A DNA stretch of 63,296 bases, counting the filler, from Bonamia ostreae (Eukaryota), in assembly GCA_040357525.1 (NCBI GenBank). It is 36 parts of 36 records of this genome, joined end to end, with 100 filler letters (N's around TTAATTAATTAA, not from the genome) between each part and the next. Parts side by side here need not be neighbours in the genome. Positions count along the whole stretch, not along the records: positions 5,315 to 6,985 come from JBDODL010001465.1; 35 more parts are not named here. One strand, given 5' to 3'. The stretch's first letter is position 1, and each line of letters begins with the position of its first letter. Of the stretch, positions 3,019 through 63,296 are shown one piece after another. The notes beneath the pieces were generated by a model. It made no database searches. It was not told the DNA's origin and saw nothing but the letters and a program-made list of their open reading frames with translations. The position numbers and the translations under genes are program-made.

Positions 3019-3604
3019 GTAAGTATTCACATACTGTGATAACTGAACTTCATGAACTAATAGGCTGTAATAAATTTATTAATTCCTCGATTCTCATCCA
3101 CCTTTAAAAAAAAAAAAGAAGTCATCCAGGTGAATTTTATTTTTATATTTGTACCATGATAGGCCTTTTTTTGACACCCCTTACTAATGAGGCTTAATCG
3201 TAATATTTGAGATAATCCATGCGAGATCCTATACCTAAAACATTGCTGTGCACCAATGACTTTGATAGTTTGAAGATTTGCAGGTCAGATGACCGCAACA
3301 ATATTTGATTCTGTGTTGGGTTCTCTGAATTTGCTTTTACGGGCGACATCACATGCTCGTTGATAAATACGATGTCCAGGTTTCAAAAATGTCTCATGAT
3401 ATACTGGGCGTTTCATAACTATTTTTCTTGTCTTTTACCTGATNNNNNNNNNNNNNNNNNNNNNNNNNNNNNNNNNNNNNNNNNNNNTTAATTAATTAAN
3501 NNNNNNNNNNNNNNNNNNNNNNNNNNNNNNNNNNNNNNNNNNNTGCTAATGTAATGGAGAGGGGAGAGTACTTCATTTATAACAAAGCATGATGGGATAT
3601 CTTA

Positions 3605-4015
3605 TTCATAGGTGATAACCGTATAATGATCAGTCTGTTCTATAGGTGATAACCGTATAATGATCACTTTGTTCTATAGGCGGGGCTCTATAGTTAGAGC
3701 ACCTACATAGGCTATGCCTAAAATGTTTAAAGTGATGGTGATCAGTCTTTTATTGGGGGGGGGGCTGTTATGATCAGTCCGTGTCTTTAGACAGATACCT
3801 ATAGTGATAATTCCTTTTTATAGTCGATAACCCTATCGTAATCAGTCCGTTCTATATAGGCGGGGATCTATAACGATCAGTCTTTTTGGGGGGTGGGGTA
3901 GGCAGATACCTATAGTGATAAATCAGGCTTGACTGTATAATGATCAGTTCGTTTTATAGGTGGTGCCCTATAGTGATCAGTTCATTCTATAGGCGGGACC
4001 CTTTAGTGATCAGTC
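3605..4015 (+). repeat. Degenerate ~33-nt minisatellite (host)
   Basis: Recurrent TATAGGTGATAACCGTATAATGATCAGTCCGTTC-like units. Confidence 0.8.
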
Positions 4016-5314
4016 CGTCCATCCGTCATATTTTTTTTACTATCCCTGCAGGCATTAAATCGAATATGTAGTTACGAAATGTGAATATAATGGGTTACAG
4101 CACAAGTTCTGAATTTAAACTGTGTTGACCTTATCCTAATCCCTGAACTTAACAAACTACAGTGTGCAGGTTTGCGGATCATTTCCGTGTATCCCAGTAA
4201 CTATTGCCGATGAATTCAAATCATTTTGCTAGCATTGGATTGCACATTTTCTAAAAGTGTTAATCCAAACATTATTGTGTGTGTATTGGGGGGGGGGGGG
4301 GGGTAGACCTCTTAGACCACCTCCGCTTCTGACGAGGCAGTGACGTTCATGTAGGAGATATAACAAGTTTCTCCCCGATACTCAATCAGATCCTACATGT
4401 ATATGGTATTTGTAATACCATTATTTCATGAAAAGTGTTCACTTACACTAAATACGAATCAGAGGTGAAGATAGGAAATGCATGTACGTCTGTGGTGAAC
4501 TTTGTTTAGGCAGCACAAGTAGAAGGCTCCAACCAATTCGTTTCCACAAACTTCTAAGAAATAGGATTTTGAACGTCAGCTTAACACCCTTTTAATTTAT
4601 TCCTCAAGGTATTTTGAGACGACAATTTTCCACCCGTGAAAAACGACAATTGCATAAGTATATTTTTTTTAAGAGTAAAGTAAAATACAACAAAAAAAAA
4701 CAAAAAAAAACAACTCAATATCACACAATTTAAAGACAAGTTCGACAGTCATACTAATTCATGTACCCTACATTTCTCTGCATATGCTTCCGTAACTGTG
4801 TAATATCTAGATATGACCGACAACAAAGATTTATTGTCTTTTTTAAAGAACCACAAGAGATTATAAATACATTTCCCTGTTTTATAACACTACCGCAAAA
4901 GAAAACGAAGTTCCAGTTTTAAAGACGAACCCTAGACCGGATAAAATCCGCACACAACAGAAGCGAGATACATGTACATTTATGCATGTACAATTTGCCT
5001 CAGTAGTCAGATGTAGTATCATGAATACTTAGATATGCTTATTGATGCTAATCTTCAGTAACGGAGCATAAATTGTTATTTTCAGCACATAATACGTACG
5101 AGTTATCATTTCTGAATTTTCATTAAGTTATGATAGTCCGGGGCAAACTGTAGTAGCCTCAGTCTACCGGACGAGGGTTAATGTCTAACCCTGGACGTTG
5201 ATACATCCAAGGAANNNNNNNNNNNNNNNNNNNNNNNNNNNNNNNNNNNNNNNNNNNNTTAATTAATTAANNNNNNNNNNNNNNNNNNNNNNNNNNNNNN
5301 NNNNNNNNNNNNNN

Positions 5315-5524: not shown

Positions 5525-6340
5525 ATGTTAAAAATTAGACAGATCGGTTCTGTTTGTAAAAGAAAAAATAGATTATTTCTGTTTGTCAATTTTCGGCTTT
5601 TCGCAATCCGTAAAAAAGAGCTTAGAATTTTAAGGCGGAAATCAAAAAGAGAAGAAAAGAGCGTTTCGAGAGAACCTTATTCCATCGTTAAAGATCGATA
5701 TTCTCAAAGTTTTCAACATTGACATTTTAGAAAAAGTCAAATTTGATGTTTTTTACTACGTTTTAAGCTATTCGTCTTTGTTTATTGCGCTGGCAATTTT
5801 AATTTTCATGGCTCGGTATTACTACAGAAAACATAGAACGCATTCGATTATTAACGAAGCTAGACTGACGATCAATCAAACAAAAAATGTTTTTTTGACG
5901 AATGACAAATTTGCAATAAACAAATTTACAAAAATGTCAAAAAAGCAAAATTTGCAATAAACAAATTTACAAAATTTACAAAAAAGTAAAATTTGCAATA
6001 AACAAATTTACAAAATTTACAAAAAAGCAAATTTTGCAATAAACAAATTTACAAAATTTACAAAAATGTCAAAAAAGCAAAATTTGCAATAAACAAAATT
6101 TAAAAATTTTAGCACAAAAATAAGCGCTATTTTTTGCCAAGAAACGCTCAAATAATCACAAAACAAACAAAAACTGAAAACGATTATTTTCTGCATCTTT
6201 TAACTCCCATTAAATCAGGTTCAAATGGCCAAACTGCTTTTCTTTCTTTAAAAATAAACAATTCGGAAATCAAATTCAAAACAACCGAAATCCAAATTTT
6301 GGAGAACAACAAAATTTTCAATGTTTTGGCTAAAAAATAA
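5525..6340 (+). CDS. Single-TM, probably mitochondrial protein, possibly COA1/Tim21-like
   Basis: Basic N-terminus, TM segment ALAILIFMARYYY, then SIINEARLTI...LLTPIKSGS. Intron 5889-6112 is filled with a ~38-nt tandem repeat. Confidence 0.4.
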
Positions 6341-6369: not shown

Positions 6370-6781
6370 TTATCAAATTTTCGATTTTTTCGATTGAACT
6401 GTTCTCTTTATTTCTGTAAGAACAACCAATCGTCTTTTCTGTAAAATCTCAAGTTGCTTCTCTAGTTGTTTCCTCTTTTGTTCTCCGCCATGTTCTTCAC
6501 TTATTCTCTCGTTTTTCTCTTTTTCCTCAAAATATTTTTTTAGTCTTTTTGTTTTTCAATTTAATAAACTTTGGTTTGATATTTTCCAATCGCCGCAAAG
6601 TCTCCAACATTTTTACCGGATAAACTTCAATTGCCCTTTCTCTTCTCCGCATTGCTTCGAAGGACGTAATCGGTTTCCTTATCAGTTTGATGTGGTATCC
6701 GTCTTTAGTCACAAACGTGAATCCGTGCATCTTCCTCTCGATGCATTTGTTTTCGTATTCGATCGCGTCTTCGAAGTTGTC
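6370..6781 (-). CDS. 3' part of unknown basic/coiled-coil protist protein
   Basis: ORF 6527-6730 extended by one intron; upstream intron (6782-6985) is tandem-repeat filled. Confidence 0.5.
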
Positions 6782-7085
6782 TGAAAATTTTTATTTTGAA
6801 AAATCGAGAAATTTTGACAAAAAAAAGATTTATAAAAAAAATTTCAAAAATTGAAAAATTTTGACAAAATATTTATAAAAAATGAATAAAATCGTCTGAA
6901 AATTTTGACAAAAAAAGATTTATAAAAAATTGAATAAAATCGTCTGAAAATTTTGACAAAAAAAGATTTATAAAAAATTGAATAANNNNNNNNNNNNNNN
7001 NNNNNNNNNNNNNNNNNNNNNNNNNNNNNTTAATTAATTAANNNNNNNNNNNNNNNNNNNNNNNNNNNNNNNNNNNNNNNNNNNN

Positions 7086-7804: not shown

Positions 7805-8593
7805 ATGCTCCGCAAAAATTTTGTAAAATTTGTAAAATCATCAAATCGCAAAACAAATACGAACTTTCGGAGATTCTACGATTTTAAAGCTTTTTCTAAT
7901 CCGTTTATCAAATCCGCAAGTTTTAACGCTTTTTCTACAACAACGGAACCGAACAAAATCGCACAAAAGAAACCGGAAAAGAAAGCCATTCAGATCAACG
8001 AAAAAATTAAAGGTTTCGCAAACGACTAAAATAGGAAAACGAAGCGAAGAAAAATTTAAAGCGGAAACAAAAGAAATCTTAGAAATAGTCTCAAAATCAA
8101 TTTACACGAACAAAGAGATATTTTTGAGAGAACTGATTTCCAATTCATCCGACGCGATCGAACAATTGCGATATAAAATGAGAGAAAGTCCGAACGATTT
8201 TAGCCAAAATGTCGATTTCAAAATCAATATTTTTACTGATCCTCAGAACAATAGAATTATTATACAAGTTATTTTTTTCTAAATTTATTGCTAAAAATCC
8301 AAAAAAGCTTAAAAAATGAGCTTTAACGAATTTTTTATAATGAAATTTGATAATTAGGACAACGGGATCGGAATGGCCAAAAAGCAATTAACGGAAAATC
8401 TCGGAATAATCGCAAAGTCCGGATCGAAGAATTTTATGAAGAGCATTAAAAACAAAGGAGATAAAGCTTCAACGATTATTGGTCAATTTGGAGTTGGATT
8501 TTATTCGTCTTTTATGATTTCGAGCAAGGTCGAAGTTTTTACGAAAAGTTGGCTCGACAAAAGTTCGTCGGCTTTTTATTGGGTTTCAGACGG
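7805..8593 (+). CDS. TRAP1: Mitochondrial Hsp90 (TRAP1/Hsp75), exons 1-3
   Basis: R/K/S/F-rich presequence; [53 protein letters not shown]. Introns 8013-8034 and 8268-8357; third intron starts at 8594. Confidence 0.93.
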
Positions 8594-8938
8594 GTTTTTG
8601 GGATTAAAAATTTTTTTGCGATATTTTTTGGGATTAAAATTTTTGATGATTTTTGTTTTTTTTTCGATATTTTTTGGGATTAAAATTTTTTATAATTTTG
8701 TTTTTTTTCGATATTTTTTGGGATTAAAATTTTTTATAATTTTGTTTTTTTTCGANNNNNNNNNNNNNNNNNNNNNNNNNNNNNNNNNNNNNNNNNNNNT
8801 TAATTAATTAANNNNNNNNNNNNNNNNNNNNNNNNNNNNNNNNNNNNNNNNNNNNAAAAATTGACCATTTTTATATTCTTTCAATTTTGTTGAAACTTTT
8901 CCGTCTATTTGCTCGAAAATAAAAAAAATCGAATAAAT

Positions 8939-9525
8939 TTAATTATCTTTATTGTTGTTGTCCTTGTCTCCAACATTATTTTTATCGCCATTATTTTTAT
9001 CGTCATTATTTTGTTCATTTTCGTTGTTGGTGCTATCATTAAGAGCGTCTTTCATAACTTGGTCGATATCAATGTCGTTTTTGTCGACGTCAGGCAAAGA
9101 TTCGATAAGAAATCTTTGTCACCAATCAATTTGTCGATTTGTTGTTTTTCCGATTTGTCTGGCAGATTCGAAAGGCTCATCGCAATTGCTTTCGCCAATT
9201 CGTCCTCTTCTGTTTCCATCGGTTCAGATTCTGTCTTCGTCGCTTCTAAATTTTATTGCTTCTTAAAAATTTTTATTTTTATTTTTTCCGATTTTACATT
9301 TATCGGCCATTTTAAGCAATTTTTATTTTTTCCGATTTTACATTTATCGGCCATTTTTAGCAATTTTGAAAATTTCAACGTTGATTTTCTTCCAAAGACA
9401 TTTTGAGTGCCAAGGCGAGTTCAGGGTCGTCTTCCATTTCAGCCGACCCGTTTTGCGGCACCTTCGCAAACTTGCCGAAAGCAGTGTCGGCGAGACTTTC
9501 GCCTTCGCTGACAGAAACCATTATC
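8939..9525 (-). CDS. PSMD4: 26S proteasome ubiquitin receptor Rpn10/PSMD4, C-terminal half only, with a frameshift near 9096-9112
   Basis: VSEGESLAD, UIM1 EDDPELALALKMSLEE, UIM2 EEDELAKAIAMSL, then DKDFL../ESLPDVD and an acidic tail. The vWA domain is absent from the contig. Confidence 0.85.
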
Positions 9526-9565
9526 CTGTTTTTTCTACTAAGCTCGCATATAATTAATCGCCATT

Positions 9566-9652
9566 ATCTCACAGGAGCATTGATTTAAATGTTGTTGCGG
9601 GGGAATGACGTGACCGAAAGGGCGTTCCTCTTGTTAGTAATTCCTGTGAAGA
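9566..9652 (+). ncRNA. Candidate structured RNA or hairpin element
   Basis: Perfect TCACAGGA (9569-9576) / TCCTGTGA (9642-9649) closing stem, inner GGGGGAATG/CGTTCCTCT helix, CC-GAAA-GG tetraloop; a GC island in AT-rich DNA. Confidence 0.4.
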
Positions 9653-9776
9653 TGACTAAAGCAAAATTATGTGGTTTTACAATTTGATCCAATTAATATC
9701 CACCAATCCTATTCTTTTAGTAGAAAGCGATTTTTAAAGAAAGAAAATAAGACTTTAAAATAATTTTAATAAAAAA

Positions 9777-10430
9777 GTGATGCGTATAAGCACTAAGGAC
9801 GATCTTGATAAACATTCCGCAACTCTTTTAATGTTAGTAAAACAGATTATGCTCCTTCATTCTCCTCGACAATACAAACTTGTATTGGATACGATATTTA
9901 AAGAAACACCAATTCTTTCTAAGATAGATAAACCAGGATTAGGTTTAAAACATTATCTTAAAAAGCTGTGATAGTTGATTTTTTGGAAGGAAACAGACCT
10001 GATTCGGTAGAATCAGGATCTGCAGAAGAAAGATTTTTCAAACTAGTCAGTGATTTTGAATCCAAAATCGAAGTTCTTAAATAACACATTAACTAATTAT
10101 ATTTAAAAAGACTTTCGATGAAACGTTTTATATTGAATCGCTCCAATTATGCGGTTTTCATTATTTTAATCGTTAAAATAGTCGAATTTGCTAGATATGG
10201 CTTTCTGACTTTGACGGATACACTTTTGATAGAGTTAAATGAGAAATTTGTTGAATCAAAAATGCAACATTAAAAAGCTTCTGAATATATGAAATTTGTT
10301 AGTGATTCTTATTCACATTTGTTAGTGAGTTTTTTACTTTAATCCAATTAAACAGAAGATGATGCTGATTTAAAACAGAACTTAAAAAATTTAACTTTGC
10401 ACTTAGGTTTTGAACCAATAATTTGTTAAG
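9777..10430 (+). pseudogene. Decayed intron-containing gene of unknown family
   Basis: Protein-like frame shifts at the A5 run (~9960) into AVIVDFLEGNRPDSVESGSAEERFFKL, continues over GTT..AG introns, and has an in-frame TAA near 10271. Confidence 0.45.
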
Positions 10431-12393: not shown

Positions 12394-13790
12394 ACAAAAA
12401 ATTTTGGCAAAAGAACAACTAACAAAAAACATTAAAGCTCCAATAACATGCACAAACGCATTAAAAGCGATAGCAATTACAGCAGCAAGCGAAACAGCTG
12501 CATATAATAAAATGTTTTTGGTCACTTCGTTCTCCGGTAATATGTTGTTGCCGGCGTACTGAATTAATATTTGGCAAAAAAACTTTATCGGTCCAAAAAG
12601 CTAAAAATCTTTTGACTCCGAAATCGCTTCCTTGTCTCAAAGCGAAGGAAATGGATATGACCAGAACCATTAAAATTCCCCCGTTGGCCATAATATAATT
12701 TTTATAGACTTTCCAACCGATTGCTCCGGCTTTTAATTTTTTATTTTGCAAAATTCAAAAAGCGATTAAATTTTAAAGTAAAATGTGATCAGAATAAAAA
12801 AAGTTCAAAGTAATAAAAAGAAAAAATCGATCAAAAATTTTAAAAATGCGAAAAATAAAATTTAAAAACGCGGAAAATTGAAAATCGATCGAAAATTTGC
12901 AAAATGTGAAAAAATATTTAATAAAAAAGAAAAATCGATAGAAAATTTAGAAAAGTGAAAAAGAAAATTTAAAAACGCGAAAAATTATAAAAATCGATCG
13001 AAAATTTGCAAAATGTGAATAATAAAAATTCGAAAAAATATTTTCAAAACTTTCCTTTTTCTCTCTATCTATCAACTTTCCTTCCGAATTGTGAGCCCCT
13101 TCTTCGAAACCAGAAACCGCTTCAAAAGAAACAGAATTTTCTATCCCTGTTCCGCTGATTGAAACAATGCGTGATCGCGATCCAGAAAACTCTATTTCGT
13201 GTTTTGTGTCATCGATTTTTTCCAAAACTTTTTCTTCGGTCAAATCGTTTTCATCTCGTCTCGTTTCGTTCTTATCCGAAGAAAATGCATTTTCCAAACT
13301 TTCTTTGATCTGTTCGAAAGCACCGAATTTTGTTATTTTCCCATTTTCGATCAAAATGAGCTTATTCGCGAGAGGATAAAAGTCGACTGCGTTTGTACTG
13401 AAAATGACTGTTTTGTTTTTTAACAAATCTTTTATGCAGCTATTCATTATTTTCTGTGCCACTTGCGGGTCTAGTGCGCTTAAAGCGTCGTCGATCAAAT
13501 AAATGTTTTTTCCTGTTAATAATTTTCGAATTTGCCAATTTGGATTTTCAAAATATTTTGGAATTTATTAAAAACTGGAATAAATGGCTCTCGCAAGAGA
13601 AACTCTTTGCTTTTGACCACCGGAAAGGTTTATTCCTCTTTCCCCGATTTCAGCGAATTCGCCGCCTTTTATCATTTTTAAATCTTCCGCGAGGCAGCAT
13701 GATTGAACGACTTTTGTGTACCATTTTTTGTCAAATTCGTTTCCAAATAATATGTTATCGCGAATCGTTGCATTTTGAATCTTTATTTAA
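12394..13790 (-). CDS. ABCC/MRP transporter, NBD1 to start of TMD2 (partial)
   Basis: [48 protein letters not shown]; repeat-filled introns at ~12730-13050 and ~13790-14061. Confidence 0.92.
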
Positions 13791-14161
13791 TTTTAAAGAA
13801 TATCGACACAATATTAAAAATCTAGAAAAATATTGAAATATCAAATTTGAAAATATCGTCAAAACATAAAAACAAAATATTAAAAATCTAAAAAATATTG
13901 AAATATCAAATTTGAAAATATCGTCAAAACACAAAAACAAAATATTAAAAATCTAAAAAATATTAAAATATCAAATTTGAAAATATCGTCAAAACATAAA
14001 AACAAAATATTAAAAATCTAAAAAATATTGAAATATCAAATTTGAAAATATCGTCAAAACANNNNNNNNNNNNNNNNNNNNNNNNNNNNNNNNNNNNNNN
14101 NNNNNTTAATTAATTAANNNNNNNNNNNNNNNNNNNNNNNNNNNNNNNNNNNNNNNNNNNN

Positions 14162-20237: not shown

Positions 20238-20310
20238 GCCCTGTTAGCTCAGCTGGTAGAGTATTAGATTCTTAATTTAGTGGTCGCGGGTTCGAGTCCC
20301 GTACAGGGCT
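20238..20310 (+). tRNA. tRNA-Lys(CTT)
   Basis: GCCCTGT/ACAGGGC acceptor stem, TAGCTCAGCTGGTAGAG D-arm, TTAGA-TTCTTAA-TTTAG anticodon arm, GGTTCGAGTCCC T-arm, followed by an oligo-T terminator. Confidence 0.96.
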
Positions 20311-20355
20311 TTTTATAGTTTATTTTTTATTACTTTTTTTGGATATAATAAAAAT

Positions 20356-21394: not shown

Positions 21395-22780
<1,386 letters not shown>

Positions 22781-29944: not shown

Positions 29945-30158
29945 NNNNNNNNNNNNNNNNNNNNNNNNNNNNNNNNNNNNNNNNNNNNTTAATTAATTAA
30001 NNNNNNNNNNNNNNNNNNNNNNNNNNNNNNNNNNNNNNNNNNNNTGGAATTAAAATTTTTTATAATTTTGTTTTTTTTTTGCGATATTTTTTGGGATTAA
30101 AATTTTTTATAATTTTGTTTTTTTTTTGTGATATTTTTTGCGATTAAAATTTTTAAAG

Positions 30159-31678
30159 AAAAGGAACATTTTCTATTTCGGAAGCAGAAAACGTTAAGAA
30201 TGGAACTAAAATCATTATAAATCTCGATGAAAATTGCTCCGATTTTTCGAAACGTGAAAACATCGAAAGTTTTTAAGACATTTCAAAATTTAAAGAAATA
30301 ATCAAACAATACTCAAATTTTATCGAATTTCCGATATTTCTCGATGGCAAAAAAATGAATATGGAAGGAGCGCTTTGGCTCAAAGATCCAAAATCGGTCT
30401 CCGAAATTCGCCATTCTGAATTTTATAAAAATATGACAAATGCGTATGATTCTCCGATGCTCCACATCCATTTTAGAAAAGATTATCCGATCGCTTTAAA
30501 CGTTTCTCCCAATTCAACATTTATGATTTTTTTTACAAAATTTGATTAAAAATTGCTTTATCAAATTGCAAAAATTAGTTTTAAAAAACAAAAATTGCTT
30601 TATCAAATTACAAAAATTATTTTAAAAAACAAAAATGGCTTTATCAAATTACAAAAATTAGTTTTAAAAAACAAAAATGGCTTTATCAAATTGCAAAAAT
30701 TAGTTTTAAAAAATAAAGTGGCTTTATCAAATTGAAAAAAATCTAAAAAACCAGAGCATCCTTTACATCCCCAAATACCACTCGGAGAAGTACGGCAATG
30801 CCCGGATGAAACCCGGCGTCAGTCTGTATTCCAAAAAAGTGCTCATTCAGAAAAACAGCACAGAACTGCTTCCGGACTGGATGCGCTTCGTAAAAGGCGT
30901 CGCTGACAGCGAAGACCTCAACCTGAACATTTCCAGAGACAGCACGCAGAGCAAATCCACTCTTAGCCGCATCGGCTCTATCCTCACGAAGACCTTGATC
31001 GCTCGGCTCAAAGAAACAATCAAAAACGATCCCACAAAATATGAACAATTCTACGAAGAGTACGCTCTCTTCCTCAAAGAAGGCGTCTGCACTGATTCGG
31101 AGAACAAAGATGCGCTCGCTCCTCTCCTGAAATTCGATTCTTCGAAGATCGATAACAAAAGTAAGAAAAAGCTTGAAGACAAAAATGACGATTTGAAGTC
31201 GTCTGAAAGGTTTTTTATAATTTTTTAAAATTTTTGTCCGTAAAAGCTTAAAAGAATAAAAATTATTTTCTACAAAAAATTTAATAAAATGTTAAAAATT
31301 TAATATTTGAAATATAAAAAGCTTTAAATGTAACATTAAAAAGTCCGGAAAATTATAAAATTTTTTATAAAAAATATCAAGTTCGAAAGAAAAAATTTCA
31401 AGTTTGAAAGAAAAAATTTCTGGAAGGACATTTGATGATTATGTCGGAGCAATGGACGGACAACAAACGAAAATTTACTATTTGGTGACATCGAATAGAT
31501 CTGCCGCTGAGAATTCGCCTTATTTCGAAAGCTTTAAAAAGAAAGGTCGAGAAGTTCTATTTTTGTACACTCCAATAGACGAATTTGTGATGCAAGGATT
31601 GGGCAGTTATAAAAACAGGAAGTTGGTTTCGATTGAATCGGCCAAATTGGATGAAGAAGATATGGATCAGTTTGACAG
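30159..31678 (+). CDS. TRAP1: TRAP1 exons 4 onward (continuation of 7805-8593)
   Basis: GTKIIINL, YSNFIEFPIFLDGKKMN..ALW (no charged linker), VSLYSKKVLI, LPDWMRFVKGVADSEDLNLNISRD, FLKEGV, SPYFE. Introns 30269-30295, 30502-30754 and 31210-~31381. Confidence 0.93.
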
Positions 31679-33563: not shown

Positions 33564-33970
33564 ATTTTTTACTATTTTTAAATCAAATTTTGCAATTTGC
33601 AATTTTTTTACTATTTTTAAAAATCAAATTTTGTAATTTGTGATTTTTTACTATTTTTAAATCAAATTTTGCAATTTGCAATTTTTTTACTATTTTTTTA
33701 ATCTAATTTTGTAATTTTTTTACTATTTTTTTTAATCTAATTTTGCAATTTGCAATTTTTTTTACTATTTTTTTTTTAAATCAAATTTTTCAATTTGCAA
33801 TTTTTTTACTATTTTTTTAAAAACAAATTTTGTAATTTGCAATTTTTTTACTATTTTTTTAAAATCAAATTTTGCAATTTGCAATTTTTTTACTATTTTT
33901 TTAATCTAATTTTGCAATTTGCAATTTTTTTACTATTTTTTTAAAATCAAATTTTATAATTTTGTAAAAA
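33564..33970 (+). repeat. Intronic tandem repeat, ~40-nt unit
   Basis: About ten copies of TTTTTTACTATTTTTTAAAATCAAATTTTGCAATTTGCAA ending at acceptor AG 33978-33979. Confidence 0.9.
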
Positions 33971-33979
33971 TCAAATTAG

Positions 33980-35506: not shown

Positions 35507-36981
35507 ATCGAAGGCGACGAGCCGTGCGTCCTCATAACGACCTATTCGATGCTGGCCTTTTCCCAGCGCCGCTCCAAAGAGTCTCAGAAAATGATCGAAT
35601 CCGTTCGCTCGCGCGAATGGGGGCTCCTCATTTTGGACGAAGTCCACGTCGCCCCTGCGGACATGTTCAGACGCTGCCTCAACGTGGCCAAGTCCAAGTG
35701 CAAACTTGGACTGACCGCCACTCTTCTCAGGGAAGACGCAAAAATTTCCGATTTGGTAAAATAATAAAAATAACAAAATCGACAAAAACAATAAAATCGA
35801 TAAAATCGACAAAAACAATAAAATCGTCTAAAACAATAAAATCGATAAAATCGGCAAAAATAAAAAAAAATCGGCAAAAACAAAATCGACAAAAACAATA
35901 AAATCGTCAAAAACAAAAAAATCGTCAAAAACAAAATCGACAAAAATAAAAAAATCAGCAAAAACAAAATCGACAAAAACAATAAAATCGTCAAAAATAA
36001 AAAAAGTCGTCAAAAACAATGAAAATCGTCAAAAACAAAAAAATCGACAAAAACAATAAAATCAGCAAAAACAATAAAATCGTCAAAAACAAAAAAATCG
36101 ACAAATTTAGTCTTTCCTCGTCGGCCCGAAACTGTTCGAGGCGGACTGGCTCGAGCTCCAACGACAACGCTACCTCGCCACCGTGCGCTGCGTGGAGATC
36201 TGGTGCCCTCTCGACCCCCTCTTCTGCAGACAGTACATCCTCCAGCGCTCCACCAACCGGCGCAACCTCCTCCAGACGATGAACCCGTCCAAATTCAGAG
36301 TCTGCGAACACCTCATCCGGCTCCACGAGGAACGCGGCGACAAGATAATGGTCTTCTCCGACAACATCTTCTCGCTCAAGAAGTACGCCGTCATCCTGGG
36401 GAAGCCTTTCATCTACGGCCGCACCTCGGAAGCAGAACGGCTGGCTACGCTGAAGTCGCTGCAGGAAGACGACGAGATGAGCACCGTTTTCATCTCGAAG
36501 ATCGGCGACTGCTCGATCGATTTGCCCGACGTCAACGTGGTCATCCAGATTTCCTCCCACTTTTCGTCGCGCCGCCAAGAAGCGCAGCGGCTGGGTCGGA
36601 TCCTGCGACCGAAAGCGCGCAGCGACGCGAGCGCGCATTTCTACACGTTGGTTTCGGAGGACACAGATGAATGCGTGTACGCGGCGAGGAGGCAGCGGTT
36701 TCTGATAGACCAGGGCTACATGTTCGAGGTGAAGAATGGCGGAGGACTGGAGGGGGGCTTTTTCGAGGACGAGAAGACGAAGAAGGGTTTGCTGAAGGAG
36801 GTAATGGCTGTTTCTGAGAAGGTTGATTTTACAAAATTTTCAAATTGTAGCTTGGCAGTATTGAATCCGACATCGAAGACTTTGAGAAGACGAAGACACC
36901 GAAAATCAAAAAAGGGAAAAAGACAAAATTTAAATCGGAAAAAATGAAGAAAATTAAAGAATCGATTTTGCGCAGAAAGAG
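35507..36981 (+). CDS. ERCC3: TFIIH helicase XPB/Ssl2, 3' part
   Basis: TTYSML, EWGLLILDEVH, KLGLTATLLRED, MNPSKF, DKIMVFSDN, SRRQEAQRLGRILRPK, RQRFLIDQGY; repeat intron 35756-36109. Confidence 0.96.
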
Positions 36982-44145: not shown

Positions 44146-45700
44146 ACTAAGACATAGGCACTCAGCAACAAATCCTTTCCGTGGATGTCCTTCAGTTCGA
44201 TAACCGGAATCGAGTCCGTCTTCCTAAACTCGATATCGTGAACTTCGCCTGAAAAACCAATTTCCTGTCCGCTTTCAAAGCGCCCTTTTCTGCAAGCAAT
44301 CGCTGCGAACCCATTCCGAGCCATGTCTTCAGTTCTGTCCACATTCATTTCTTCCGTCGTAAGTTGGTCCGTAGCGCAAAATCTTGTTTTCGAAACGGGC
44401 AAAAAATCGCCCGTTTTAGACGATTTGTCGTTTAACAAATAACTCAATTGCAAAAATTGCTCGAACAAAGCGATGCTCGTCAAATTGAATTTTGCGACCA
44501 CTTTTTTGGCGTTTTCGGGGAGCGGCTTCAAAACGATGGCCGAGTTGAAATATGGCGGTTTCCTAAAATCGCCGGGCAATGGCACTCTGAAAAACAAGTG
44601 CGCCAGAATTTCGAGTATTTTTATGCAAATCAGATTTTCGTTTTGTCTTTCTTCTTTCGTTTTGTTGCTCGATTTCAGTTGTTCCTAAATTCGTTTTGCA
44701 AAATTTAACTTTTAATTCGTTTTCGTCTTTTAAACTGACCGGCAACGGATTGCAAATGGAGTCGAAAACGCCTTGTTGCAGCAACATCGAAAAAACAAAG
44801 TTGGCCGGTTCCGTGGAATAGAGTTTTGTGACCAGTCCGGAAAAATGGACCGGAATCAAATTTTTGTTGATCAGACCGTTTATTAACAGATATTCCATCG
44901 AATAGCGATACAGCAATTTGGTCTGTTTCGAAACGAGCGGTTTCTGGGCTGAGTTGTCCAAGTCGTCGCCAAAAGTGCGCTTCATCGTGTTTCGAAGGGC
45001 TTTTAAGCGGAATGTTTTGTCTGTCGCGGACGCGACGCAAAACAGGTTTCGGAGAAAAGAGGTCACGGAAATCGTTTCGTGGCCGTCTTTTAAGAGATTT
45101 TAATTTAAAACGAAGAGACAGGAGAGAAGATGTCATCAGATAAGATATTTTCTGAGGAGGAATCCCAAAGAAAATCACTTTTCCGACTTTAAATTTTTGT
45201 GAATAAAAAATATTTTTGGCGATTTTTTTTGCGATTTTAATCAAAAAATTTTTTGTTTTTTAGAAATTTTTCGCGATTTAAATAATGAATTTTTATTTTG
45301 ACGATTTTTTTTTGCGATTTAAATCAAAAATTTTTTGGTATTAAAGACTATTGTCATATCCTCTTCTTCCGGCGCGACCCATCATCTGTCTGTAGCGCAG
45401 AGGAGTCAACTCAGAAGAATCTCCTGCGAACACAGCCGTCCTGCACGGCATATTGACACCGAGCGCCAAAGTGCCGACCGTTAAAACGACTTTTATGTGC
45501 TTTGCTCTGAAAAGCACTTCGACCAAAGTTTTGTACGCGCGACTCATTCCGTTGTGATGCACTGCGATTCCTCTGTTGATACAACGGAGGAAAGGGTGGT
45601 TTTTAGACCAATTGTTTTTGCGGAGAGCTCTTCTGAGCCAATATTCGACGTCATCGTTGTCCACCATTTCGCCTGGACGAAGGAAGCTGAACCGGAAATC
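44146..45700 (-). CDS. DDX60-like Ski2-type RNA helicase, C-terminal region
   Basis: RGIAVHHNGM, TLALGVNMPCRTAVFAGDS, YRQMMGRAGRRGYD, GKVIFFGIP, LHGH, LVTKLYSTEPANFVF. Confidence 0.88.
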
Positions 45701-46092: not shown

Positions 46093-47520
46093 ATGCCAAA
46101 GTTCCTAGATAGAGACTTCCCTCCGGATCGGAGCTCCATTTTCACCAAGGGGCAAACTCCAAACGTTCAAATTTCGTGGAAACGACTGGAAGATCTGGTC
46201 GACGTCGGAACGGATTTGATCGCAAGCACTTCTGCAGAGGATATCGTCCAAGGATCCCTCGGCGATTGCTGGCTTCTCGCTTCTCTCACTGCGATCGCAG
46301 ACAACAAAAAAATTCTCGATCGCATTTTCAACACAAAAATCGTCAATTCCGACGGGAAATATTCGCTCACCTTCAACATTGACGGAATGGACAAGGTCAT
46401 CCAAATCGATTCGTATTTGCCCTTTCTCCCCAACGGCTTGCTCTACAGCGCGAGAATGGAGCACGAGCAGATTTGGGTCGCAGTTGCCGAAAAAGCAATG
46501 GCGAAATGTGTCGGCGGATATGACAGAATGGAGAGCGGGGACTGCGAAGAGGCGTTGAGAGTTTTCGCTATAACGTTAAAGGATTTCACCGGATGCCCAA
46601 CAGACACGTTCGACGACAAACTCGATCCGGGAGATTACTGGCAGAAGCTCCGAGAGTACGCAAACAGCAAAGACCACCTTTTAACTTGTGGTATCGATTC
46701 GTCTTCCATTCCGAATCTGCCGAAAGTGCATCCCCAAATCCTCTCGAACGGATTGTTGATGGATCATGTTTACACCATCTTGGACGCGCGCTGTCATGAC
46801 GAAACGCAGACGCGTCTTCTTAAACTGAGGAATCCGTGGGGAAACCTTGAATTCAATGGAAAATGGTCTGATTTTTCCACGGCTTGGAATCCGTCCTTGA
46901 GAGCTTTCTTTGGAAGCAAAAACGATTCCAACGACGGGATTTTTTTCATTTCCTTCGAAGAATTTGCGTTTTTGACATTTTTATTCCAAACTTGATAATT
47001 TTAACATTGAGACATTTCTCAAACTTTTTTTTATTTCGGACATTTCTTGTTTTGTATCTGATCTTTCGATTTTTGCAATTTTTTGTTTTCAGATTTATGT
47101 GAATACGATAAACTTAGAAACTTTAATGTCAACGATATCTTATTTTTAGTAAATTTAATCTCTGTTGTGCAAGTTGATCACTAATTCAAAACAAATCTTA
47201 AAGCTTGAACAAAATCTTATAAATTAAAGCAAATCAGTTATTTTATAAATGGAGGTAGCTCAAAACAGTATTTTAACACAAATTTTTAAATTCAATTTTT
47301 GTCGTTTAGCAAACAAAATTAAAAAATAGAAACTTCTTCAACGTAGTAAGTTATTGTGATACTCGCGATGGCTGGAATGCCTCAAGAATTAAATCAAAAT
47401 TTGTCAAAAATGAAATTGTCGACACAGACGTGCTAAGTCTCAACATTCCAGAAGACAGTTCCAATTTCTTAGCCATCCATCAACAAGACGAAAGAGTCAA
47501 AAATGCGAAAAAACATATCG
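46093..47520 (+). CDS. Calpain-family cysteine protease (CysPc), 5' part
   Basis: Intact triad QGSLGDCWLLA, DHVYTI, LRNPWG; AEKAMAK; EALR|DFTG after removing intron 46561-46581. Confidence 0.95.
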
Positions 47521-61645: not shown

Positions 61646-62942
61646 ATTTTGCGTTAAATGAAAAATAATCTTCAAAATTTTGATAAATGGCTGATCTAAA
61701 TTTTGCGTTAAATGAAAAATAATCTTCAAAATTTTGATAAATGGCTGATCTAAATTTTGCGTTAAATGAAAAATAATCTTCAAAATTTTGATAAATGGCT
61801 GATCTAAATTTTGCGTTAAATGAAAAATAATCTTCAAAATTTTGATAAATGGCTGATCTAAAATTTGCATAAAATGGCACAGAATTATTAACAAACTTTT
61901 AGTTTTATCACTGTATTCTAAAAAGAATGTTACGGCGTTTGTGTGACAATCAAAATTTCCTGCGAGAATCGGAAATGCTACAAAGAAACTATAAGGAGTT
62001 TTAGAAAAAAGAGATATTTCAGCTTTCGAGGTATCCAAATCAAATATAAAGTACAATATTCCGGCAACGAGAAATATTATGGCAACGAATGCCGTTATCG
62101 ATACAAACCGAAGCGAATCCAATCCTTTTAAATTGCAAAAATTGTCATTTAATAAATTTATTTGCAAAATTATTTTTATTGCAAATTTTCTTTTATTTTT
62201 GGCATTTTTATTACATTTTTTGCAAATTTTCTTTTATTATTGCCATTTTTATTACAATTTTTTGCAAATTTTCTTTTATTATTGCGAATTTTATTGCAAT
62301 AACAAAAAAGCAAATTAAAATATTCCAGTTTTCCAAAATAGTAAAACGCTTAAACAGCGAAAGCGGAAAGAGCACAAAAATCGAGACAATCAAAACAATC
62401 GCCCAATTCGGAAAATCGTAATTCTGGTAAAATTTGATGATTGACATTATCCGCGAACTTATTACCAGCTGATAGCCCGCATTCGCAGAAATCGTTATTC
62501 CGATTATAGAAAAATCGACTAAAACGACAAGCCATGTCCCAATATCTTCAAACATTAGCGAATACGAATTTTTTCTCGTCTTCTTGCCCAAGAAACCGAT
62601 CAACGAGAACGAATAAGCGGTGAAAAAATAAATGAGCACCAACATTATGTTGCCAAGAACTACCCCGCTCAGCGTGAACGTCCATGGAATGAAAATGAGG
62701 AAAGAGCCGATTATGTTTTTCGCCATGTTGAGCGTGAAGATGACGACTCCGAAAGGTTTGTCAAGCCAATAATCCGTTTTCTGATTTTGGGAAAGTTCTA
62801 AATCGAAGCTGTCGCTTTTTAGGGGGTCTTTAGAGCCATTTTCCGTATTTTCGTGTGCTTTAAAATCGATTTCGCGTTTGTCGTCAGTTTTCCTTTTTAA
62901 TTCTTCGATATCTTCTTTTGCTTTTTTTAGTTTGTTGACCAT
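61646..62942 (-). CDS. Amino-acid transporter (AAAP/SLC38-like), 5' part
   Basis: IFTLNMAKNIIGSFLIFIPWTF, FPLSLFKR|LDSLRFVS across intron 62125-62347, AFPILAGNFDCHTN. Confidence 0.88.
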
Positions 62943-62994: not shown

Positions 62995-63296
62995 AGAGCA
63001 AAAATGAACGTTTTGAAATTTATAATTTGTGTTTCGGAATTTTAACGATTTCCTTTTGTTTTTATTCGTAATTAATTTTTTTCCTAATTACAAAAATTTA
63101 TTAAAATGAACGTTCTGAAATTTATAATTTGTATTTCGGGATTTTAACGATTTCCGTTCGTTTTTATTCGAAATTATTTTTTTCCAAATTACAAAAATTT
63201 TTTAAAATGAACGTTCTGAAATTTATAATTTGTGTTTCTGAATTTTAACGATTTCCGTTCGTTTTTATTCGAAATTATTTTTTTCCAAATTACAAA
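62995..63296. repeat. Tandem repeat, ~102-nt unit, three copies, probably intronic
   Basis: AAAATGAACGTTCTGAAATTTATAATTTGTGTTTCGGAATTTTAACGATTTCC... repeated at ~63001, ~63103 and ~63204. Confidence 0.85.

Follow-up and report, generated by a model that had tools for sequence, protein, structure and literature searches.

Locus-specific minisatellites (VNTRs), as described in PMC6947457, consist of head-to-tail units of 10 to more than 100 nt confined to a single locus, with a short overhang in the two-copy form and amplification at a later stage. The tandem arrays of Bonamia ostreae analysed here share these features, and at one intron two assembled versions differ in copy number. They differ in that the units are very AT-rich (median GC 18%), the copy numbers are low (mostly 2-5) and the host genome is one in which half of the introns measure ~22 nt. 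Ultra-short introns are reported in PMC10245619 for mikrocytids (16-17 nt), chlorarachniophyte nucleomorphs (18-21 nt) and heterotrich ciliates (15-16 nt), where they are confined to a narrow range and are explained by a length floor together with deletion bias. B. ostreae, which belongs with the mikrocytids to the class Ascetosporea, shows the same sharp floor and narrow peak; however, of its 1485 predicted introns 650 are longer than 32 nt, some of them longer than 500 nt, and the RNA-supported introns of one locus, L024, span 20-187 nt, unlike the narrow mikrocytid range. Drosophila, C. elegans and Arabidopsis also combine a tight peak of minimal length with a long tail, yet their peak lies at 60-110 nt according to PMC8226300, whereas that of B. 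ostreae lies at ~22 nt and its tail keeps minimal GTT...AG signals. Secondary classes of longer introns in a short-intron protist are known from the intron length cycle of Tetrahymena LRR genes (PMC6564038); there, the repeats comprise whole exon-intron units and the growth is driven by a retrotransposon, while in B. ostreae repetition is limited to DNA inside the introns and no element family was found. In the Ascetosporea genome paper (PMC11069148), the introns of B. ostreae are described as canonical and its repeat content as 4.33%; the word 'tandem' is absent from the main text, and the supplements may hold intron statistics. In a literature search that largely excluded subscription journals, no title or opening of an abstract among the papers listed describes this array pattern in Bonamia or tiny-intron genomes, and no paper on VNTRs in Bonamia was found. 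Altogether, the repeats are of a known kind, minisatellites, in an unusual setting, and they are neither specific to introns nor the main source of long introns.

We analysed a window of 63,296 nt in which 36 contigs of 1651-1672 nt each (~1.66 kb) are joined by N spacers, together with samples of the whole assembly (10.3 Mb, 7503 contigs). By composition, 23 of the 36 contigs are protist-like (CpG-rich, TpA-poor and with tiny introns) and 13 resemble animal host DNA (contigs 2, 3, 10, 14, 16, 17, 19, 23, 28, 29, 30, 32 and 33); hence the assembly is mixed. The host-like contigs hold three arrays of score >=100 in 21.6 kb. The exon beside the array at 5889-6112 matches a public protein labelled Bonamia ostreae (P0121) at 100% over 75 residues, and the highest identity of the XPB exon among named matches is 64%, to the rhizarian Spongospora. 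A search for SSU rRNA yielded only a weak match. A gene predictor self-trained on the 60 longest contigs plus the window was applied to 122 contigs (762 kb, ~7% of the assembly, with a bias to long contigs); density counts exclude the host-like contig C506 and 26 targeted loci. Compared with the 13 RNA-supported introns of L024, a single locus, the predictor placed six exactly, gave three wrong ends and missed four, so that genome-wide counts are approximate; two of the four missed introns had been called intergenic, and some 'intergenic' arrays may therefore be intronic. By eye, we also noted a candidate tRNA-like gene at 20240-20312, between two protein genes.

Table 1. Tandem arrays and the introns or flanks that hold them, in window coordinates.
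Position	Strand	Feature	Array	Basis
5889..6112	+	224-nt GT-AG intron, hypothetical-protein gene		TRF; P0121 skips exactly 5889-6112
5907..6074	+	array inside 5889..6112 intron, degenerate to 6109	41 nt x 4.1	TRF
6781..6985	-	predicted intron, 3' part; contig end cuts intron	48 nt x 3.8	TRF, predictor
8594..8755	+	HSP90-family intron, 5' half; contig ends within array	44-nt unit	TRF, profile
8974..9012	-	coding tandem repeat	15 nt, 2.6 units	TRF
9246..9379	-	134-nt intron between two UIM-coding exons	44 nt x 2.1	TRF, predictor, profile
12730..13050	-	321-nt predicted intron, ABC transporter gene	107 nt x 1.9	TRF, predictor
13781..14061	-	ABC transporter intron, 3' half	65 nt x 3.9	TRF, in-frame join
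30045..30158	+	3' half of 8594-8755 intron, other contig	47-nt variant unit	TRF
30502..30754	+	253-nt intron, HSP90-family gene	42 nt x 4.6	TRF, HSP90 profile
33564..33979	+	array at contig start; probable intron, donor not visible	42 nt x 9.9	TRF
35756..36110	+	355-nt XPB helicase intron, nearly all array	18 nt (9+9) x 19	TRF, profile
45187..45348	-	162-nt predicted intron after Helicase_C exon	degenerate 41 nt x 2.7, 72% matches	TRF, predictor, profile
61646..61896	-	amino-acid-transporter intron, 5' part; contig start cuts intron	54 nt x 4.3	TRF, predictor
62125..62347	-	223-nt amino-acid-transporter intron	42 nt x 3.0	TRF, profile
62995..63296	.	5' flank	101 nt x 2.9	TRF, predictor

A sequence-only reading of the window had listed twelve long introns as tandem arrays. 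TRF finds an array at all twelve places (Table 1), with periods of 41, 48, 44, 44, 107, 65, 42, 42, 18, 41, 42 and 101 nt in order (41 nt at 5889-6112, earlier given as ~38, and 65 nt at ~13790-14061, earlier given as ~59), and it adds two arrays (30045-30154 and 61646-61876). Eleven of the twelve fit introns of coding regions. The exception is 62995-63296, which begins 53 nt upstream of an ATG at 62942 (minus strand); the product of this ATG reaches a transporter domain after 68 residues, hence the array is no coding-region intron, and it may be part of a 5'-UTR intron. The intron at 5889..6112 follows P0121, itself a gene model and not direct RNA evidence, while the predictor took an alternative in-frame acceptor at 6124. 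Homologs bear out the HSP90-family and XPB introns: the exons flanking 30502..30754 cover HSP90 profile positions 80-124 and 131-268, and the XPB junction at 35756-36110 aligns free of gaps to all four homologs tested. Contig ends cut 6781-6985 and 33564-33979, so that one splice site is visible in each. For the former, the upstream exon was not found and the downstream exon has no Pfam match; the latter, labelled intergenic by the predictor, has an AG at its end, followed by an open exon of 32 aa that is transporter-like and likewise lacks a Pfam match. The 107-nt unit of 12730..13050 is composed of ~21-nt subunits.

Two introns are split between contigs inside their arrays. The halves at 8594-8755 and 30045-30158, in an HSP90-family gene that we take to be TRAP1-like, join in frame, and their units (8594-8755 and 30045-30154) match at a normalised 0.94; the 5' half of the 13781-14061 intron lies with its upstream exon on C4510, and the join keeps the frame. 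Whole-assembly searches found no partner contig for 33564-33979 or 62995-63296. The intron at 9246..9379 lies in window 8856-9521, a 5'-truncated duplicate of a presumably Rpn10-like (proteasome) gene: C3484 carries the full copy, from which the compared exon differs at 6 of ~140 nt, the duplicate abuts unrelated DNA at 9521/9522, and 9523-9640 recurs on C7282 at 96%. The 15-nt coding repeat of the duplicate (Table 1) is 30 nt longer in the other gene copy on C4466. The window also has introns, predicted or apparent, that are long but show hardly any detectable tandem structure or none (31210-31423, 22230-22420 and 46968-47329), as is typical of most of the long class.

The arrays are real, private to their locus and spliced out. 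Predicted non-coding DNA (269 kb) holds 141 arrays of score >=100, compared with 0, 0 and 1 in three order-5 Markov simulations. At L024, a 10-kb locus, we compared the assembly with three DNA runs (X1, which may be the source sample, and X2 and X4, from another study) and one RNA-like run, X3; no run is recorded as RNA, and X3 was taken for RNA by a guess that its GT-AG skips support. Among the matches listed, X3 shows 13 such skips (20, 26, 30, 37, 57, 66, 77, 121, 126, 140, 174, 182 and 187 nt), four of which remove an array of score >=100, and none of the 13 appears in the DNA runs. The count excludes 5903-5966, with opposite-strand ends, and 3441-4175, which lacks splice ends. Contigs of X1 and X2 span two of the arrays, and one of X4 a third, with the unit number unchanged in all; thus the L024 arrays are real, are spliced out and are not hypervariable at these three places. 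Two further features of this locus may be mentioned. At 5903-5966, 64 nt are skipped in an RNA-like contig, but the GT..AG ends read on the other strand than the predicted gene does, reflecting antisense splicing or a misplaced joint, and at 8579-9837 an RNA-supported 182-nt minus-strand intron (9292-9473) crosses a predicted spacer, its transcript overlapping a predicted plus-strand gene.

The sequence-only reading had also held that many contig breaks fall in arrays. In the window this applies to 7 of 46 protist contig ends; sample-wide, an array adjoins the break at 23 of the 210 ends of contigs and at 25 of the 70 edges of scaffold gaps, compared with 321 of 2297 positions taken at random in non-coding DNA, so that gap edges are enriched for arrays and contig ends are not. 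The frequent gaps, and the fact that copy numbers beside breaks are lower bounds, might suggest that the arrays arise in assembly, yet this is scarcely credible: the copies inside arrays differ by substitutions (72-98% matches), independent DNA runs carry three arrays at equal length, and the RNA-like run skips arrays at GT-AG ends. For the L024 arrays compared with sequencing runs, an artefact is refuted.

Several arrays match many contigs at 65-80% identity in whole-assembly searches (17 contigs for 5889-6124, up to 40 scored for 33564-33979), and transposons are a known source of minisatellites (PMC6947457), both of which would fit an origin from transposon or introner families. Nevertheless, against the 17 contigs, the 5907 unit reaches at best 0.52 off its locus, within the 0.46-0.56 of its own shuffles. 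Similarly, among 15,576 pairs of 177 units, nine same-locus pairs score 0.66-1.0, while only seven off-locus pairs reach 0.61-0.73, the range attained by dinucleotide shuffles. The 65-80% matches are thus best read as shared composition, judging from the 17 contigs of the first array. As the earlier reading had supposed, the units of this 0.9-Mb sample do not cluster into shared transposable-element families, and no introner-type family of similar introns across loci appears among the 177 units. Nor did we see new lineage-specific intron positions: the array introns lie at positions common to old, 45-52%-identical paralogs (one gene family and one pair). Local duplication rather than a mobile element is hence upheld, and a transposon or introner origin, already largely refuted in the 0.9-Mb sample, is highly unlikely. 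The claim that each array has its own unit holds insofar as off-locus matches stay at shuffle level, except that the 9275-9367 unit also occurs in the parent copy, on C3484, of the duplicated gene. Introns can also be gained, according to another model, by tandem duplication of exon sequence; here, of 110 units, one had a match in the adjacent 80 nt on either side, and such gain is not apparent.

Periodic A/T clusters of the nematode type (PATC) are characterised by ~10-nt phasing of A/T runs over long stretches, and the units of B. ostreae, made of A- and T-run words and with several subunits of 9-11 or 21 nt, invite the idea that the arrays are functional, helically phased DNA of this kind. 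We regard it as most improbable, since the AA/TT autocorrelation gives a single peak at 9-10 nt that has no lasting phase and does not rise above exons or host contigs, and since multiples of 10.5 are not over-represented among the array periods (Rayleigh Z ~1.5, n=150). At this sensitivity, arrays of the PATC type are refuted, and a quantisation of periods by helical turns is not supported.

In the predicted classes, arrays reach a density of 7.58 per 10 kb in introns (96 arrays), 2.7 in all spacers (44) and 0.30 in exons (14); convergent spacers carry 4.15 (8 arrays), tandem spacers 3.15 (22) and divergent spacers 1.31 (5). The intron-to-intergenic ratio is 2.8 (95% CI 1.9-4.1), whereas introns and convergent spacers are not distinguishable (ratio 1.8, 95% CI 0.9-4.4). 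Likewise, the self-repetitive fraction of length-matched intergenic windows is 9/45, 17/45 and 7/18, against 11/45, 26/45 and 8/18 for introns. A duplication specific to introns, as first proposed, is therefore not borne out, and equal abundance in intergenic DNA, which was named as evidence against it, applies in part, namely to convergent spacers (4.2 vs 7.6) though not to all spacers together (2.7 vs 7.6). These densities point to a process general to unconstrained DNA, with introns as the most tolerant place. Within introns, the arrays do end before the splice sites, with median gaps of 23 nt (5') and 31 nt (3'); 3 of 71 overlap a predicted boundary.

The 1485 predicted introns comprise 835 of <=32 nt, 377 of 33-119 nt, 211 of 120-299 nt and 62 of >=300 nt, with a sharp floor, almost none being shorter than 19 nt, and a narrow peak that spans 19-23 nt. 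Two components of equal weight, at 22 and 90 nt, fit far better than one, and three or four fit slightly better still, hence the long class is a continuum. Of the proposed bimodality, the sharp ~22-nt peak and a hump near 90 nt remain, the hump being broad; the span of '~20 nt and >300 nt' was overstated, as introns of >=300 nt make up 4% of the total. A 9-11-nt ripple in lengths of 33-70 nt is weak and vanishes beyond 70 nt, a range for which the predictor lacks an explicit model of length, and was treated as self-training noise. An array is present in 21 of 377 introns of 33-119 nt, 82 of 211 of 120-299 nt and 31 of 62 of >=300 nt. Altogether 134 of the 650 introns >32 nt (21%) hold one, and extra copies amount to 10,055 of 78,038 nt of excess intron length (~13%), ~87% not being recognisable extra copies. 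Arrays thus account for much of the upper tail and little of the 33-119-nt class; that they explain the long class, as had been suggested, is not supported.

The same reading had placed the expansion inside 20-40-nt introns. When arrays are collapsed to one unit, a median of 142 nt is left and only 1 of 71 introns falls to <=32 nt; as the units moreover exceed the modal intron, 70 of the 71 cannot have grown from a 20-40-nt intron in one step. The median unit of ~44 nt being longer than the tiny introns, growth must have been stepwise or have begun in mid-size introns. An amplification specific to 20-40-nt introns that makes the long class could draw on the 2.8-fold higher density in introns, on non-array flanks summing to <=38 nt in about a quarter of the 71 array introns, on paralogs with tiny introns at positions where others carry arrays, and on the predictor's mislabelling of some introns as intergenic. 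It is clearly improbable in view of the 44 intergenic arrays, eight of them between convergent stop codons, the median unit of 44.5 nt, the single collapse to <=32 nt, the scarcity of arrays at 33-119 nt and the similar self-repetition of length-matched intergenic windows.

The arrays themselves hint at how they arose. In two-copy arrays the overhang beyond two units has a median of 6 nt and is >=6 nt in 18 of 33 (10 of 25 once eight rows of >=20 nt, possible partial third copies, are dropped), compared with a median of 1 nt and 10% >=6 nt in 1330 simulated random duplications. Such overhangs are the mark that duplication leaves between short direct repeats in the model of Haber and Louis (1998), in which, as summarised in PMC6947457, minisatellites are born by duplication between 5-10-bp flanking repeats. 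The other 15 of 33 have overhangs <6 nt, nine of them zero or less, and fit fill-in at DNA breaks, a duplication source described in PMC8355091, as well as slippage. Units contain internal sub-repeats in 34 of 134 cases against 10 of 134 control segments, a figure possibly inflated where TRF doubles the period, and the flanks of the same intron resemble the unit in 12 of 55 cases against 2 of 55; nested units and degenerate flank copies indicate repeated rounds of duplication.

We consider it probable, with good confidence, that the arrays are ordinary locus-private minisatellites produced by genome-wide local duplication and filtered by selection. AT-rich non-coding DNA full of A/T runs would supply many direct repeats of 5-15 nt, and slippage or microhomology-guided repair would duplicate the 20-100 nt lying between two of them. 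Further slippage or unequal exchange would then yield 3-10 copies, with smaller units nested in larger ones, and point changes and homopolymer indels would erode the array; this step is shown in part. Selection would remove duplications from exons and, for the most part, from divergent spacers, which bear promoters, in keeping with the observed densities; in introns and the remaining spacers they would persist provided that they do not copy a splice site. Finally, the swollen introns would be removed by the same GT-AG code as 20-nt introns, as seen at L024. Loss of a repair pathway was considered as well and rejected, as Ku, MutS-family proteins and an A-family polymerase are all present; the Ku and A-family polymerase contigs, which were checked, look parasite-like, and the top solved-structure matches of the polymerase are to polymerase theta, at 72.7 bits, a lead over bacterial Pol I (69.3 bits) that does not decide between the two.

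Among the introns, copy-number change was seen at one place. The 62125-62347 intron has 3.0 units in the window; in a second assembled version, on C4219, it measures at least 301 nt and holds 4.4 units or more. The two versions of window 61760-62400 (the other being L131 on C4219) share an identical 228-nt exon and differ in intron substitutions and unit number; they may represent heterozygosity, mixed strains or a very recent duplicate. A difference in unit number is thus seen at one intron, where the second version may be an allele or a recent duplicate, while three of three L024 arrays are unchanged in other DNA samples.

Four amino-acid-transporter paralogs lie on one contig (L043, C42, 800-9352) and share intron positions with very different lengths: at two shared positions, these 45-52%-identical genes have introns of 22/20/55/579 and 22/22/231/70 nt. 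With matches of 75-92% among their copies, the arrays are younger than the paralogs; the paralog tree gave no resolution and does not fix the earlier direction of size change. Long introns also cluster by gene (adjacent concordance 0.636 vs 0.511 +/- 0.017), and genes rich in GC3 have fewer of them (rho -0.35, 165 genes). A regional, isochore-like cause was examined and rejected: the long fraction falls as the GC3 of the contig rises (rho -0.41, 60 contigs), yet neighbouring genes do not correlate (rho 0.03, 172 pairs), which places the clustering at the level of the gene. Position in the gene had no clear effect on the intron length class. We infer selection for short introns in some genes.

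As to the long class itself, the ~90-nt hump may be an ancestral size that has not yet shrunk, with the 22-nt peak derived and the arrays decorating older introns. This is a serious possibility, somewhat short of an even chance, and is compatible with the minisatellite explanation of the arrays. Three other rhizarians have mean intron lengths of 68, 82 and 87 nt (PMC13746701, Table 1), most of the excess length (~87%) is not recognisable as extra copies, at one position each of the three paralogs with an intron there has a long one (137/58/55 nt), and long introns make up 24% in genes of GC3 >=0.5 against 46-51% in other bins, as would be the case had only part of the genes been driven to the floor. 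On the other hand, degenerate flank copies and nested units imply that old duplications fade below detection, and intermediate sizes (37, 55 and 70 nt) occur at positions where other paralogs have 20-22 nt. Rather unlikely, though worth keeping in mind, is that nearly all introns once shrank to the ~20-nt floor and that insertion-biased duplication then re-expanded about half of them gene by gene, the mid-size class being decayed duplications.

Whichever way they grew, short and long introns use one minimal splice code, as the earlier reading anticipated. GTT donors occur in 88% of short, 86% of mid and 85% of long introns, and all size classes lack a pyrimidine tract but share an A-rich spot that lies 7-9 nt upstream of the AG, with no extra 3' signal in long introns. 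Long introns are mildly depleted in AG and GTTT on the sense strand, and an internal decoy resembling a complete tiny intron is found in 115 of 273 introns >=120 nt (127 on the antisense strand). In recursive splicing, an intron is removed stepwise through internal AG|GT ratchet points; these are not enriched in the 273 introns >=120 nt (AGGT 32 sense vs 58 antisense).

In summary, a length floor stands in B. ostreae alongside a duplication-fed tail under the same minimal signals, and thereby offers a natural test of the floor and deletion-bias model invoked for tiny-intron systems (PMC10245619). The arrays also matter in practice: they break short-read assemblies and split genes, in two cases shown here, and they may serve as strain markers. 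If introns were indeed re-inflated from the floor, this would be a tiny-intron genome in reverse, whose spliceosome pairs GTT...AG over 19 to more than 500 nt despite decoys. The introns of B. ostreae thus also test how splice sites pair among decoys.
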